The notes under the pieces: generated by a model | What the model was told of the DNA's origin: nothing | The model's database searches: none | The model's input: the letters and a program-made list of their open reading frames with translations, nothing else | Source of the DNA: Nitrosopumilus sp. | GTDB taxonomy: Archaea; Thermoproteota; Nitrososphaeria; Nitrososphaerales; Nitrosopumilaceae | NCBI GenBank assembly: GCA_963662625.1 | Contig: OY759726.1 | Coordinates: 1,794,699-1,858,698, forward strand | Length of the DNA stretch: 64,000 nt | Direction: 5' to 3' | In this document: positions 13,256-16,125 of the stretch, piece after piece | Layout: every line of letters starts with the position of its first letter | How positions within the stretch are numbered: position 1 is the stretch's first letter | Made by a program: the position numbers and the translations under genes

Positions 13256-13283
13256 TTAGGCCATGCGCGTACCAGAACCCAGT

Positions 13284-13679
13284 ATGCTATTCGGGAAGAA
13301 GTTCGAACGGCAGGTCTCCCTGCAGAGGGACGTCCTAGACAGCATACTGTCATACTGCAAGATGAAGCACCCTAACGAGGGGATCCTGATCCTGAAGGGC
13401 AAGTCCAAGAAGGGCGACATCAGGGTGGACGGCCTGGTGATCCCCCCGTTCAACTACACGGGCCCCACGTTTGCCGGCTTCCCGCACTCGTTCCTGCCGT
13501 TTGACATGAGCTACGTCGGCAGCGTCCACTCCCACCCGAGCGGCTCTGCGGACCCCTCGATCACCGACCTGCACAACTTCTTCGGGCTGGTGTCGGTCAT
13601 AGTCAAGGCCCCGTACGAGGATGAGGACGTCTTTGCGTGGGACAGCGGGGGCAAGCCCATCAGGATCGACATAGTCTGA
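13284..13679 (+). CDS. JAB/MPN (JAMM) metalloprotease
   Basis: PNE...HSHPSGSADPSITD JAMM motif. Confidence 0.92.
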   Translation: MLFGKKFERQVSLQRDVLDSILSYCKMKHPNEGILILKGKSKKGDIRVDGLVIPPFNYTGPTFAGFPHSFLPFDMSYVGSVHSHPSGSADPSITDLHNFFGLVSVIVKAPYEDEDVFAWDSGGKPIRIDIV

Positions 13680-13919
13680 CGGCCCCGTCGTGCGTCCTTG
13701 GGGCGCCAAAGTGGAACAGCGTGGCCGCGACGCGCTGGCGGACGTGCCCTTGGCTGGGTACTCGCACCCCCCGACGGCCGCTCCTACGAAGCGTTCCTCC
13801 GGGCGCTCGTGCTCCAAACCGTGGGCATCGAGTGCTTCCCGCACGTCGTCCGTGGCCACGTCAGGCCATAGTTTCCCAGCAGCTTCCGGGCCGTCCTGGA
13901 AGCGGTCGTCGTTTGCCAT
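13680..13919 (-). pseudogene. Unknown ORF starting 2 nt after hammerhead cleavage site; apparently 3' truncated
   Basis: MANDDRFQDGPEAAGKLWPDVATDDVREALDAHGLEHERPEERFVGAAVGGCEYPAK...; frame runs on antisense into the JAB gene to a stop at 13350. Confidence 0.4.
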
Positions 13920-13967
13920 GCGACGCCGCTCGCGGCGTTTCGGCCACCGGGGCCTCATCAGGCAGGC
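13915..13967 (-). ncRNA. Type I hammerhead ribozyme (copy B)
   Basis: Minus strand: gccugc CUGAUGA ggcc-ccggu-ggcc GAAAC gccg-cgag-cggc GUC^ gcauggc; full catalytic core and stems I-III. Confidence 0.93.
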
Positions 13968-14029
13968 TGTCTGGGCGTCTTTCAAAAATTAAATACTCGG
14001 GGGTCCAACATCAGGTGGTGGGGGCTCAG
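13915..14029. repeat. 115-bp direct repeat (partner 15493-15607)
   Basis: Ungapped alignment at offset 1578, 11 mismatches by manual count; similarity resumes at 14089-14130 vs 15706-15749. Confidence 0.95.
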
Positions 14030-14108
14030 CTGGACTTTAGTCCACCTACTCTTCATCTCCAGATGAAGGGATTAGCAGTGCCAAGTTTTCATCATCGCCC
14101 TCACCATC
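14014..14108 (-). ncRNA. Box C/D-type RNA (unit B)
   Basis: Terminal stem, C AUGAUGA (14095-14089), D' CUAA (14075-14072) or CUGG (14062-14059), C' AUGAAGA (14056-14050), 20-nt guide, D CUGA (14029-14026). Confidence 0.75.
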
Positions 14109-14175
14109 CAAGCCAGTCCCATGGGACGGCCATCCCAAATCGAACACTAAAATAACTCCGGGGCCTCCTGAAGGT

Positions 14176-14245
14176 GGCGAGGGGTCAGATCTGACAGTCA
14201 TCATCACAATGATGATCAGAAGCCGTTCTCATCATCCCCCTCGCC
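14176..14245 (-). ncRNA. Compact box C/D-type RNA with two 9-nt guides (unit C)
   Basis: GGCGAGGGG g AUGAUGA gaacggcuu CUGA ucaucauugug AUGAUGA cugucagau CUGA CCCCUCGCC: four perfect boxes and a perfect 9-bp terminal stem. Confidence 0.85.
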
Positions 14246-14643
14246 CGGTTCACCCGGCACTTGCCGGGAAATGCCGCCAACCGGCGTGACTGCCGGACCA
14301 ATTCCGGCGTGAAAACGTGAAAGGAGACGTCTTGCGTGAGACAAGACACATGGAAGAAGGCACGTAGGATGTCTCGTGTGGCATAAGACGCGGCGCCATG
14401 GTGACACTTTGGCATGTTAGATGGGGGTTTACTAGGGTCCGATTTTGTGTTTGGTGTTTTGTTCCTGTTTTGGTTGGAACGCCCACCATAACCGCGAAGG
14501 ATACTAGGGAGTTCGGGTTTTGTCGGAGCCCGCAGACGTCCTCCCCCGCAGGGTATATGGATCGCGCCGTCCCGGGGTTGCCAACGGGGCCACTGGCTGC
14601 CGGCGCGGCCGCGCCCGCGGCGCTCCTTGAACGACATGGACCG

Positions 14644-15270
14644 TCAGTCGAACAGACTGTAGAGCTGGCTGTCTGTAAGACGTGGGGCTTCGCGGGTCTC
14701 GGAGCACATGTTTGACACGTACCTGCCGTGTTCCGGAAGGTAGATGCCCTTCCCCGGAACGTATCTCCCGATGCCCTGCAGTATGCGGGCGACATCCCCT
14801 TGAGAGTGGCTCTCGGCCACTGAAGTTGCCATGGATCCCCTGCCGGGGGTTTCGCCCATCCAGGGCTCCTCAGCATGGCTTCGTTTGGTAAAAAAGGGGG
14901 CGGCTACCGCCTGCCGCCCATGCCGTCCCTGAGCCTTTGCCAGTGGGCCTTTTAGGTCCCACGACCTTTTTGGCGCAGAACTCGAGCCGCCGGAGGACCC
15001 CGCGGGGGAGGCACTCTTCCAGGTCAGACCTGGACTCCCCCGGAGCAGCTGCTCCAGAACCGCCTTGCACTTGGCCGGCCCCATGGCTTGGAATTGCTCC
15101 CTGTACCAATCGGAACCGTGGAAGTCCGGCGGGTTGCAGAACTGGCACTCCTCCCCGTACTCGTCCCCGCGGGGATTGACGTGGTCGTGCGCGTCCGCTT
15201 GATCCTTTTCGATCAGTTTGGCGGCCAGCAGGTAGTGCTCGACCACCCGAGCCGATGGGAGTTCCCCCAT
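14644..15270 (-). CDS. Hypothetical protein, possibly frameshifted continuation of 15213-15497
   Basis: 208-aa ORF with HxH...CxxC; no recognisable family. Confidence 0.4.
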   Translation of the reverse strand: MGELPSARVVEHYLLAAKLIEKDQADAHDHVNPRGDEYGEECQFCNPPDFHGSDWYREQFQAMGPAKCKAVLEQLLRGSPGLTWKSASPAGSSGGSSSAPKRSWDLKGPLAKAQGRHGRQAVAAPFFTKRSHAEEPWMGETPGRGSMATSVAESHSQGDVARILQGIGRYVPGKGIYLPEHGRYVSNMCSETREAPRLTDSQLYSLFD

Positions 15271-15497
15271 CCGGTGCCGATTGGATTCCCGGAGCCTACG
15301 TCCGTCAGTACGTCGCCGTCACTTATGGCGACAACATCGTTCTTGCAATAAAATTTGCGGGTTCGGCCCTCTGGGCCGGCTTGGGCGCGTACGGCGTCGT
15401 CGAGGCCTAGCCTCTCCTGTACGTGCTTGCAGACGCTTTTGGTTAAGAACGTCCTACCTCCTATGGAGATTTGCTTCATGACTGTTTGTTCTGCCAT
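15213..15497 (-). CDS. Hypothetical protein starting 2 nt after hammerhead cleavage site
   Basis: MAEQTVMKQISIGGRTFLTKSVCKHVQERLG...; overlaps the next ORF in another frame. Confidence 0.45.
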   Translation of the reverse strand: MAEQTVMKQISIGGRTFLTKSVCKHVQERLGLDDAVRAQAGPEGRTRKFYCKNDVVAISDGDVLTDVGSGNPIGTGWGNSHRLGWSSTTCWPPN

Positions 15498-15545
15498 GCG
15501 ACGCCGCTCGCGGCGTTTCGACCATTCAGGTCTCATCAGGCAGGC
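15493..15545 (-). ncRNA. Type I hammerhead ribozyme (copy A)
   Basis: Minus strand: gccugc CUGAUGA gacc-ugaau-gguc GAAAC gccg-cgag-cggc GUC^ gcauggc; stem II covaries with copy B. Confidence 0.93.
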
Positions 15546-15591
15546 TGCCTGGCCGTCGTTCAAAAATTAAATACTCGGGGATCCAACATCC

Positions 15592-15725
15592 GGTGGTGGG
15601 GGCTCAGTTGTCACGGCTTGAAGATGTCTCATCATTTGCGCCATGTCAGACTTTCACTGGAGTACAGCGTCGGCACTGGCATCATCATCATCGCCCTCAC
15701 TGGCATCATCATCGCCCTCACCATC
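15592..15725 (-). ncRNA. Box C/D-type RNA (unit A)
   Basis: Same terminal stem as unit B; C AUGAUGA (duplicated by a ~21-24-nt tandem duplication), D' CUGA (15649-15646), C' AUGAUGA (15635-15629), 21-nt guide, D CUGA (15607-15604). Confidence 0.8.
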
Positions 15726-15795
15726 CAAGCCGGATCAGATGGGAACGGCGCGGTCGACAAAACTTTATAAGGTTTTTGACGGTAGTTGCAGTGGA

Positions 15796-16125
15796 TTGTT
15801 CAGCTACAAGACTTATTTGATCTTCCTTTTCGTGTCACTGGCGGTCAGCATCGGCCTGCAGATGGTCCTGCCGTTCCCGTACGGCCTCGGGGTCGCGCTG
15901 GCGCTGTTCATCGCGTTCCCGCTGCTGCTCAGGAGAAAGTACATGAACCGCATGAGGGGCGGATACGGAGGCTCCGGCTCCGGCTCGTCCGGGGGCGGCG
16001 GGTTCTTCGGGCTCGGCTCGTCCGGCGGCAGCTCGGTCAGGTACGTGTGCCTCGTGTGCAACAACAAGCACAAGGGGGGCGCCTGCCCTCGCTGCGGTTC
16101 CAAGATGCAAAGGGCGGACTTTTAG
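15796..16125 (+). CDS. Membrane protein with Gly-rich linker and C-terminal zinc ribbon
   Basis: Two TM helices, CLVC...CPRCG; TTG start ~25 nt after TTTATAA. Confidence 0.8.
   Translation: MFSYKTYLIFLFVSLAVSIGLQMVLPFPYGLGVALALFIAFPLLLRRKYMNRMRGGYGGSGSGSSGGGGFFGLGSSGGSSVRYVCLVCNNKHKGGACPRCGSKMQRADF

Follow-up and report, generated by a model that had tools for sequence, protein, structure and literature searches.

What might a row of box C/D RNAs, hammerhead ribozymes and open reading frames (ORFs) be doing, one behind another on a single strand, between two genes of the opposite strand in an archaeon? The window analysed here is 64,000 nt of contig OY759726.1 (assembly GCA_963662625.1, forward-strand positions 1,794,699 to 1,858,698) of Nitrosopumilus sp., and the question arises from a 2.1-kb insert at 13680-15770, every element of which lies on the minus strand, with plus-strand JAB and zinc-ribbon genes on either side. 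Within it lie three hammerheads of type I, as many box C/D RNAs and ORFs in decay; the elements listed in a preliminary description of this DNA were all recovered on the minus strand, at or near where it had placed them. Our reading, to which we give a probability of roughly 0.55, is that this is the processing module of a mobile island, in which one transcript would be cleaved to give a nearly leaderless mRNA, with the C/D RNA on the 5′ part. The stretch itself is, by its sequence and on slightly better than even odds, a partly decayed 2.1-kb copy of the front end of a lineage-specific gene island; such islands are probably mobile and occur in some genomes of one family of ammonia-oxidising archaea. 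Below, G000 denotes the genome of this DNA, other G numbers denote relatives, and L numbers denote extracted loci or contigs.

In the design common to the islands, a type I hammerhead heads each cistron and the 3′ strand of its stem I holds the start codon (GUC|N-AUG-GNC). Hammerhead A (15493-15545, minus strand) has the core CUGAUGA at 15539-15533, a predicted cut after C15500 (GUC|GC AUG), an ATG at 15497-15495 and the stem I GCCUGC/GCA(U)GGC. Its minimum free energy (MFE) fold contains stems I, II and III, and it scores 20 bits (E 0.2) with Rfam Hammerhead_1 and 63.9 bits with our covariance model R2, in whose training it was included. Hammerhead B (13915-13967, minus strand; predicted cut after C13922, ATG 13919-13917, 61.2 bits with R2) differs from A by a compensatory change in stem II, which is GACC/GGUC in A and GGCC/GGCC in B. 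These two were already in the preliminary description; its list lacked a third, hammerhead mid (14828-14879, minus strand), with the core CUGAGGA, an AUC site, a predicted cut after 14834 and an ATG at 14832-14830. The stem I of hammerhead mid is GCCAUG/CAUGGC, an extra A stands in stem III beside the 15.1-16.1 pair, the R2 score is 60.4 bits, and the ribozyme precedes a 62-aa ORF (ORF2). A strict hammerhead descriptor found six sites in the 1.86-Mb genome: A, B and two at 149.7 and 149.0 kb, together with two that have only 0-1 bp of stem I. Rfam Hammerhead_1 gave six weak matches genome-wide, of which those at 1834-1878 and 472543-472578 were read as coding and judged to be chance.

Hammerheads of this kind recur in relatives. 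Model R1, built from five G000 hammerheads, matched three of 151 family genomes (G000, G002 and G045), and scanning genome records for the pattern gave two more loci, both from one record. The broader R2 found hammerheads in seven of 151 genomes of genus g14 and, in a class-wide sample, in four of 151 genomes, all of family f1, with none in the 70 genomes of that sample from 11 other families. A custom covariance model, as proposed in the preliminary description, has led to a total of 29 aligned hammerheads in 11 genomes of one family. Their stem cells are paired in 97.5% of 315 cases, and compensatory changes occur in 10 of 12 pairs and in all three stems, the independence of these counts being overstated by an alignment fitted to the model and by many copies that are close kin. 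The covariation score is 0.709, against 0.136 for shuffled alignments (0 of 500 reach 0.709) and at most 0.143 for slid partners. Different compensating pairs are used in AT-rich and in GC-rich genomes. The helices have the type I arrangement, with loops closing stems II and III and with stem I open. CUGANGA, GAAA and an NUH triplet are all present in 25 of the 29 copies, and all three window copies have the core; the four departures are two G400 copies (GU for GA at 8-9, one of them also CCGA for CUGA) and two G002 copies (UAAA for GAAA in one, an extra U after A9 in the other). The cleavage triplets are GUC (23 copies), GUA (3), CUC (2) and AUC (1). Copies in G002 score 35.4 bits with Rfam Hammerhead_1, above the cut-off of 34, and 33.8 and 28.2 bits.

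The position of the start codon is nearly invariant. An ATG follows the cleavage site in 28 of the 29 copies (at +1 nt in 23, at +2 nt in 5) and lies within stem I; the exception has GTG at +1 and a frame of 11 codons. The AUG pairs with an invariant CAU of the stem I 5′ strand, and the flanking pairs covary, as in the variants GCCAUG/CAUGGC, GCCAUC/GAUGGC, GUCAUU/AAUGAC and GACAUG/CAUGUC. Hammerhead-led ORFs of 221-234 aa in G289, G368, G337, G400 and G095 match a staphylococcal-nuclease-type protein from query residue 1-6; since these ORFs align to it from the first residues, the stem I ATG appears to be the true start. Most of the N-termini (MAKQFIK..., MSKKQFIK...) are similar to the N-terminus of the G000 protein; ahead of that protein lies not a hammerhead but another conserved element, X (described below). 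The ORFs of G337, G400 and G095 have an N-terminal membrane stretch. As a search marker, the nuclease-type protein domain was found in 225 of 401 family genomes, a tally that takes in the unpublished genomes G275 and G108, on which no other claim rests.

The C/D RNAs of the window stand upstream of these ribozymes. C/D-A (15595-15722, minus strand) and C/D-B (14017-14105, minus strand) have the terminal stem GGUGAGGGC/GCCCCCACC, and each matches a strict descriptor that asks for a long terminal stem; with Rfam, C/D-A scores 16.8 bits and C/D-B 19.6 bits (sR39). In C/D-A the C box is duplicated (15712-15706 and 15692-15685) and is followed by D′ (15649-15646), C′ (15635-15629) and D (15607-15604), so placed that the guide regions are 35 and 21 nt, atypically long. 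The duplicated box belongs to an internal tandem duplication of 21-24 nt at 15685-15731, which takes in the 5′ stem and C box (families D2 and D4). C/D-B has its C box at 14095-14089, its D box at 14029-14026, a degenerate D′ (CUGG, 14062-14059) and C′ (AUGAAGA, 14056-14050), and guides of 26 and 20 nt. C/D-C (14177-14244, minus strand, stem GCGAGGGGG/CCCCUCGC) is canonical, with C at 14235-14229, D′ at 14219-14216, C′ at 14207-14201, D at 14188-14185 and a D guide of 12 nt; it matches the descriptor and reaches 35.1 bits (E 6.3e-5) with snoPyro_CD, whose gathering score is 45. Genome-wide, the strict descriptor gave six matches in G000, five of them in the two loci that have hammerheads, and snoPyro_CD at E up to 1 gave four, two of them in the window locus. 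C/D candidates elsewhere in G000 lie at 438203-438255 (+) and 1032410-1032463 (+).

C/D-A with hammerhead A and C/D-B with hammerhead B form a duplicated scaffold, a 119-nt direct repeat of 90% identity at a spacing of 1578 nt (13914-14032 / 15492-15610); the offset had been given correctly in the preliminary description, which had put the extent at 104 identical positions out of 115. It had also called the guides unrelated between the copies, and this holds: terminal stems, boxes, spacer and ribozyme are kept, and the guide regions differ throughout. A third, partial copy of the scaffold formed by C/D-C and the spacer lies at G000:C1:1742855-1742998 (+), at 76% identity.

Whether the linkage would recur elsewhere with other guides and other ORFs had been set beforehand as a test of the modular unit, and it does recur, in 8 of the 11 hammerhead-bearing genomes. 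Scored over 330 nt upstream of each hammerhead, partly by script and partly by eye, a stemmed and boxed C/D RNA ends at most 100 nt upstream of 14 of the 29 hammerheads, with guides and cargo ORFs that vary by cassette. The spacing from the end of the D box to the start of the model is 18-95 nt, mostly 32-51. In G002, four to five consecutive cassettes run X, C/D RNA with 12-nt guides, spacer of ~40 nt, hammerhead, ORF; its five hammerheads lie within 2.4 kb, as the three of the window lie within 1.6 kb, on one strand and with ORFs of no known family. In L048 (4040-4930) and L049 (3040-3780), on the minus strand, six to seven tandem C/D units with a period of ~120 nt are followed by one hammerhead and a nuclease gene. 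The terminal stems of these arrays are conserved, pairs or triplets of units have common guides, and palindromic repeats (GGTCGCGTAATTAGACGACC) stand ahead of the arrays. In G465, decayed C/D RNAs lie beside decayed hammerheads. Decayed C/D remnants precede two of the 29 hammerheads in all, and 13 have no C/D RNA upstream: one of these has an insertion-sequence-like gene directly upstream, three are in G095, two are in G045, and several are second in their operon.

A paralogous and more complete island lies at 143-150 kb of G000. It starts with a 197-nt segment, a canonical C/D RNA (with the stems of C/D-C and other guides) and a long-stem C/D RNA, also with other guides, and continues with an A/T box, a hammerhead, an intact ORF1 of 198 aa, a T-run, a hammerhead and ORF2. 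It ends with four more genes, each preceded by the ~80-nt conserved element X; two of the four encode nuclease-type membrane proteins, one of which matches Pfam SNase (E 3e-5). The 197-nt segment of the insert (14419-14615, minus strand), called a structured segment in the preliminary description, matches the head of the island locus (G000:C1:150092-150289) at 97% identity and may be a leader or regulatory region. ORF1 (14907-15497, minus strand) survives as a remnant homologous to the 198-aa ORF, its first open stretch being 94 aa; a T-run again separates it from hammerhead mid; and ORF2 (14644-14832, minus strand, 62 aa) is 90% identical to the island copy. By eye, ORF1 (149646-149050), a 558-aa ORF (147639-145963) and a 303-aa ORF (144907-143996) of the island have a common N-terminal motif, h-x-I-G-G-x-x-Y..VC..V....F.C; tblastn relates ORF1 to the 558-aa ORF at E 0.007 only.

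Around the island (L106, G000:C1 138-153 kb) are a BsuBI/PstI-type restriction endonuclease gene (E 1.9e-56) and an ArdC-N-like ORF (21.4 bits, just below the Pfam cut-off) that overlaps a JAB-domain ORF, and the islands of G400 and G460 hold tRNA or tRNA-like genes. Because of these restriction, ArdC-N-like, JAB and tRNA-type genes the islands fit a mobile element; no integrase was seen in them, and a blastn comparison of the G289 island with phage records gave no match. The window copy was inserted, since the JAB and zinc-ribbon genes are only 85-100 nt apart in the sister-genus genomes G003 and G045, where the insert is missing, as the synteny check suggested in the preliminary description has brought out. 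This junction may be a variable spot. A small gene at the island head is transcribed divergently.

The steps we infer from this layout are co-transcription, cleavage in vivo, leaderless translation and maturation of the C/D RNA from the 5′ product. A long transcript would pass through one or more C/D RNAs, then a hammerhead, and on into the ORF. As long as stem I stands, the AUG would be paired and so sequestered; self-cleavage after GUC would free an mRNA with a 5′-OH that begins 1-2 nt ahead of the AUG and is nearly leaderless. The 5′ fragment, ending in a 2′,3′-cyclic phosphate, would keep the C/D RNAs, and L7Ae, Nop5 and fibrillarin of the host would trim these, with their terminal stems of 8-12 bp, into mature guide ribonucleoproteins (RNPs). 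Co-transcription is suggested by the narrow spacing between D box and hammerhead and by the way both RNAs have decayed together in G465. Upstream of hammerhead mid and its island twin there is no TATA-like box, only the T-run after ORF1; these two would therefore need to be transcribed together with ORF1.

Several observations weigh against this reading. At Rfam gathering scores there was no match of any kind in the 64-kb window, and the hammerhead check by Rfam models proposed in the preliminary description gave nothing at the gathering score of 34 bits (A reaches 20 bits; B and mid are not listed), so that the case rests on anatomy and comparison. The overstated independence of the pair counts lowers their weight. 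For hammerheads B and mid the MFE structure is an alternative fold; the island hammerheads do take the hammerhead fold by MFE, with z of -3.4 and -3.7. Window ORF1 is frameshifted: tblastn aligns it to the intact ORF1 in pieces (aa 1-77, 79-154 and 184-198) that fall in three frames, which means at least two frameshifts in the assembly. Neither ORF has an excess of third-position substitutions, the eight between the G000 copies of ORF2 being distributed 3/2/3 over codon positions and the six in the first 77 codons of ORF1 evenly. From the three frames, the even substitutions, the folds of B and mid as compared with the island copies, and the open frame behind hammerhead B, which has no relatives and runs antisense into the JAB gene, the window locus looks like a decaying partial copy. 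DNA contigs from four read runs cover it in fragments, with indels at 15036 and 15266 that possibly come from the paralogous locus. The coupling of C/D RNA and hammerhead is not obligatory, since 13 of the 29 hammerheads are without an upstream C/D RNA and two have only decayed ones; the modular unit of the preliminary description thus recurs, with a C/D linkage that is frequent and no more. In C/D-A and C/D-B the guide regions greatly exceed the canonical 12 nt, and the guides as a set match rRNA and tRNA no better than shuffled guides, chiefly when G-U pairs are allowed. Finally, the A/T box between C/D RNA and hammerhead, with its five T's, could be a promoter or terminator that splits the C/D RNA from the mRNA.

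That last point opens an account in which C/D RNA and mRNA are separate, adjacent transcripts, the hammerhead does no more than remove itself as a 5′ leader, and the C/D RNAs simply travel along in a tightly packed mobile island. The C/D RNA would come from a promoter of its own (e.g. TTATTTTA) and end at the T-run of TATTTAATTTTT, and the mRNA would start from that same box. C/D-A, C/D-B and the island copy do each have a TATA-like box ~40 nt ahead of them, the A/T box is conserved between C/D RNA and hammerhead in three genera, at least five T's are an archaeal termination signal, and the 13 hammerheads lacking a C/D RNA are easily accommodated. However, in G000, G289, G368 and G465 an A/T-rich box precedes the hammerhead core by 18-34 nt, and were it a TATA box, a start ~26 nt further on would, with 24-34 nt from box to CUGAUGA, fall within or beyond the stem I 5′ strand and leave a hammerhead without stem I in all four genomes. 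The narrow spacing and the co-location of five of six C/D descriptor matches with hammerheads ask for more than packing, as does the side-by-side decay of the two RNAs in G465. We hold this account to be rather unlikely, though a serious competitor. Distinctly less probable is that the kink-turn (K-turn) modules are L7Ae switches, with Nop5, acting on hammerhead folding or on access to the start codon, instead of or besides being guides; in that case, how strongly the island genes are expressed would depend on the condition of the RNP machinery of the host. The unusually long terminal stems, the non-canonical guide lengths of C/D-A and C/D-B, the conserved spacing to the hammerhead and the lack of significant targets for most guides would suit such a switch, and archaeal L7Ae binds K-turns of mRNA leaders and affects translation, according to the part of PMC5539422 drawn on here. 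Against it stand the canonical dual guides of 12-13 nt in G002, G289, G368 and G465, some of them conserved across genera, and some Watson-Crick matches of 10-11 nt to large-subunit (LSU) rRNA, small-subunit (SSU) rRNA or tRNA-Asp, which together point to a genuine guide role.

The regular spacing also invites the thought that hammerhead-bounded units are unit-length RNAs that become circular, the 1578-nt period marking a 1.3-mer. The cleavage sites of A and B are separated by exactly 1578 nt in scaffolds 90% identical, each unit of the tandem arrays in G002 and G460 includes one hammerhead, and the end chemistry (5′-OH and 2′,3′-cyclic phosphate) fits; an RtcB-type ligase joins just such ends, as for viroid-like and retrozyme RNAs. 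But neighbouring units differ in guides and cargo, so they are not multimers of one replicon, and the ORFs include a conserved nuclease gene in an ordinary island context, with no replication gene; we think a circular RNA very improbable. As for motifs that merely resemble ribozymes by chance in GC-rich intergenic DNA and have no function, the window copies fall below all Rfam cut-offs, and weak Hammerhead_1 matches occur in 13 of 14 control genomes as well. Compensatory changes in three stems across 11 genomes, the ATG in 28 of 29 copies, motifs in AT-rich and GC-rich genomes alike, and scores of 35.4 and 33.8 bits in G002 argue the other way, and for practical purposes exclude a chance origin. 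The single transcript processed by its own ribozymes is the reading we prefer.

If the C/D RNAs are guides, their targets are of interest. Canonical dual-guide C/D RNAs with guides of 12-13 nt are found in G002, G289, G368 and G465, and the guide stretches AAGCCGUGAC, AUGAAACGACA and GCGUUGAU recur across genera; in the island paralogue of C/D-C the stems are kept and the guides changed. The D guide of C/D-A (15604-15628) can form 10 contiguous Watson-Crick pairs with tRNA-Asp(GUC) (G000:C1:1157171-1157248), placed at U33-U42, a result reached in 6 of 40 shuffles and so not significant. Counted from box D, the fifth of these pairs involves anticodon base 36 of that tRNA, and the core of the guide, AAGCCGUGAC, recurs in L048 and L049. 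The D′ guide of the canonical C/D RNA of the island has an 11-nt Watson-Crick match at LSU 855-865, GUUCCAUUCAUU (in G289 and G400) has an 11-nt match at LSU ~2063, and one further guide matches at SSU ~1346; these are the best cases from ~30 guides tried, uncorrected. The SSU GUCAACGCC region is among the candidate methylation target regions. G000 has a single gene with a Nop domain (Nop5), at 524 kb and far from the islands.

Element X is a conserved RNA element of ~80 nt that is absent from the window; its 61 copies are spread over 12 island loci in 10 genomes. It occurs at G000:C1 145081-148727 (L106 7076-10733, minus strand) and in L095-L105, almost always behind a T-run. Three helices are supported, of which P2 and P3 are in the model and P1 is not; P1 and P2 together form a pseudoknot. 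Pairing holds in 95.5% of 627 cells, both sides change in 10 of 12 pairs, and the covariation score of 0.567 is reached by 0 of 500 shuffles, which give 0.202, and compares with at most 0.13 for slid partners. Most copies precede ORFs; others precede 13 tRNA-like genes and three C/D RNAs. Ahead of the nuclease gene stands X in G000 and G002 and a hammerhead in other genomes. In G400 (L095 7869-7956 and 9003-9092), tRNA-Ile(GAU) genes called by ARAGORN adjoin the 3′ end of X. In G460 (L096 250-4000, minus strand), tRNA-like genes of ~136 nt alternate in tandem with X; ARAGORN calls none of them. X had no match in Rfam at E up to 0.5 in L027, L028 and L001. It was considered as an integron attC site and rejected, no R″/R′ core sites being visible by eye; the G-U pairs on the sense strand point to RNA. 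A hepatitis delta virus-like ribozyme was also rejected on a comparison of the helix layouts, the helix order being similar but P4 and a J4/2 with a catalytic C missing and P3 variable. The X pattern gave 18 single matches in viral contigs, all at 19 bits or less with the X profile, and these were judged to be chance. We regard X as a new structured RNA with good support, which may be a processing element and is a natural candidate for self-cleavage.

Hammerheads and X can be joined in a wider reading, which we advance with considerable doubt: an RNA system, for which we have met no description, of polycistronic transcripts punctuated by ribozymes and RNPs, with hammerheads and X doing the cutting and the guides reprogramming host methylation. 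C/D guides, tRNA-like genes and mRNAs would be strung on long transcripts and cut apart. The hammerheads would gate translation by holding the AUG in stem I and then make leaderless mRNAs with a 5′-OH, and X would be a new class of self-cleaving or cleavage-directing RNA. The guides would alter methylation of host rRNA or tRNA, for example in the tRNA-Asp anticodon loop, to the benefit of the mobile element.

Some features of the locus are of lesser weight. The JAB/MPN-domain gene (13263-13679, plus strand; Pfam Prok-JAB, E 3.4e-11) is a conserved neighbour outside the element, with orthologues in all five relatives searched, and the zinc-ribbon membrane gene (~15796-16125, plus strand) forms the other flank. 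In the same-genus genome G002 (L107, G002:C12, 1-988) the contig ends 988 nt past the JAB gene, and those 988 nt are unrelated and AT-rich; in G001 (L108, G001:C223, 1906-2055) the contig likewise ends soon after it. The zinc-ribbon gene was not found in the short contig remainder of either genome. The TATA-like box at 15763-15770 (TTATAAAG on the minus strand, CTTTATAA on the plus strand), which the preliminary description had placed at the head of the minus-strand row, is indeed present; its G045 counterpart CCTTATATG stands ahead of the orthologous zinc-ribbon gene, which itself starts ~85 nt past the JAB gene, in the promoter place of this plus-strand neighbour. By this comparison the box most likely serves the zinc-ribbon gene and may also serve C/D-A. 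A second TATA-like box, TTATTTTA (14148-14155, minus strand), lies ~43 nt upstream of the C/D-B stem and is conserved in the island copy. The A/T box TATTTAATTTTT lies in the interval from C/D-A to hammerhead A (15562-15573, minus strand), has a second copy at 13984-13995 (minus strand) and is identical in all three scaffold copies; it may act as terminator, promoter or spacer.

The frame behind hammerhead B, ORF-B (13680-13919, minus strand, continuing to 13350), is open from the hammerhead ATG and overlaps the JAB gene in antisense; over its full length it is unlikely to be a genuine gene. Pfam and PHROGs gave no family for ORF1, ORF2 or ORF-B. Searched by tblastn against the island loci, the ORFs had no relatives beyond G000, and ORF-B had none at all; a protein search with query P0001 (lengths 108-347 aa searched) matched only the copy of the window itself.

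Wider DNA searches gave little. A search of 41 relatives with 761 nt of scaffold DNA found only the genome itself and one weak C/D match in G002, and the hammerhead-ATG pattern had no match in viral contigs. Metagenome contigs yielded 10 hammerhead loci, of which nine were viewed; eight are of tandem or repeat type with no ORF after the ATG, X is present in none, and they were set aside as animal-type repeats. Thus L112-L117, L120 and L121 have repeated type I hammerheads with the stem I GCCAUG/CAUGGC (up to six in tandem at a spacing of ~56 nt in L120), a GC content of 0.36-0.48 and no following ORF, and are read as animal-type satellite or retroelement hammerheads. L119 is GC-rich and prokaryotic-looking, with an ORF of four codons.

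Our literature searches found, going by titles, no report of a natural hammerhead or other small ribozyme for Cenarchaeum, Nitrosopumilus or Thaumarchaeota, no C/D RNA paper for Nitrosopumilus or ammonia-oxidising archaea, and, by title and the start of the abstract, no linkage of hammerheads with L7Ae or small RNAs (sRNAs) in archaea. No hammerhead design with a start codon or leaderless mRNA was found either; supplementary alignments (Perreault et al. 2011 Dataset S1) lay outside the scope and might list family members. As far as these searches reach, the new points are that such hammerheads occur in this archaeal family, that their stem I contains the start codon and that they are coupled to C/D RNAs, together with X. 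The preliminary description had known of no system with this architecture, which stands for the C/D coupling and the start-codon design and does not stand for tandem hammerheads with small ORFs, which are described in the part of PMC6155905 drawn on here.

For the guide RNAs, several known systems offer comparison. Work by Tripp et al. in 2017 is said to cover archaeal box C/D sRNAs, including clustered or co-transcribed genes. The RNAs described here are like archaeal C/D sRNAs in their C, D′, C′ and D boxes, their terminal stem, their dual guides and, in several relatives, their 12-nt guides; they differ in stems of 8-12 bp, in guide regions of 20-35 nt in two of the three window units, and in standing upstream of a ribozyme. 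In the polycistronic small nucleolar RNA (snoRNA) clusters and dicistronic tRNA-snoRNA genes of plants and yeast, guides are released by RNase III or RNase Z from longer precursors that include a further functional RNA, whereas here a self-cleaving ribozyme would do the cutting and an mRNA would be the partner. If so, a ribozyme would separate a guide RNA from an mRNA, of which we know no other case, and a mobile island would carry guide RNAs for the methylation machinery of its host. TIGR-Tas systems, as presented in the part of PMC12045711 used here, have 36-nt units with two spacers of ~9 nt each, alternating repeats of 8-12 nt, UG/CCA 'boxes' and an adjacent Tas (Nop-domain) gene. To that extent the likeness lies in tandem dual-spacer guide arrays carried by viruses or mobile elements and akin to box C/D RNPs; here, in contrast, the boxes are canonical (RUGAUGA/CUGA), the units are 55-130 nt long, and the only Nop-domain gene is at 524 kb. 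Because that lone gene is so far away, the C/D RNAs would use the machinery of the host rather than a TIGR-Tas system.

For the ribozymes, the nearest parallels are in bacteria and viruses. In bacteria and (pro)phages, tandem hammerheads flank small, non-conserved ORFs and are persistently linked to phages; the role of genome-encoded prokaryotic hammerheads is, in the portions of PMC6155905 and PMC6765202 drawn on here, an acknowledged open question. The anatomy seen here suggests a concrete role, in which the ribozyme would make, and possibly gate, a leaderless mRNA: the cut lies 1-2 nt before an ATG paired in stem I, in 28 of 29 copies and in AT-rich and GC-rich genomes alike. So far as those sources go, the bacterial and phage arrays resemble ours in having several hammerheads on one strand, small ORFs without a family, a mobile-like context and a suggested role in processing polycistronic transcripts; ours are unlike them in the archaeal host, the type I fold, the cut 1-2 nt from a start codon in stem I, the C/D RNAs and X. 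In the haloviruses HF1 and HF2, a hammerhead variant lies upstream of a helicase gene, and the mapped 5′ end of the mRNA is at most 3 nt from the cleavage site (Perreault et al. 2011, PMC3088659, in the part drawn on here). There, too, the hammerhead, in this case of an archaeal virus, immediately precedes the first ORF of its transcript and defines the 5′ end of the mRNA; the halovirus site differs in lying 13 nt upstream of the start codon, its core has an insertion, and that part of the source describes no C/D RNA or tandem cassettes.

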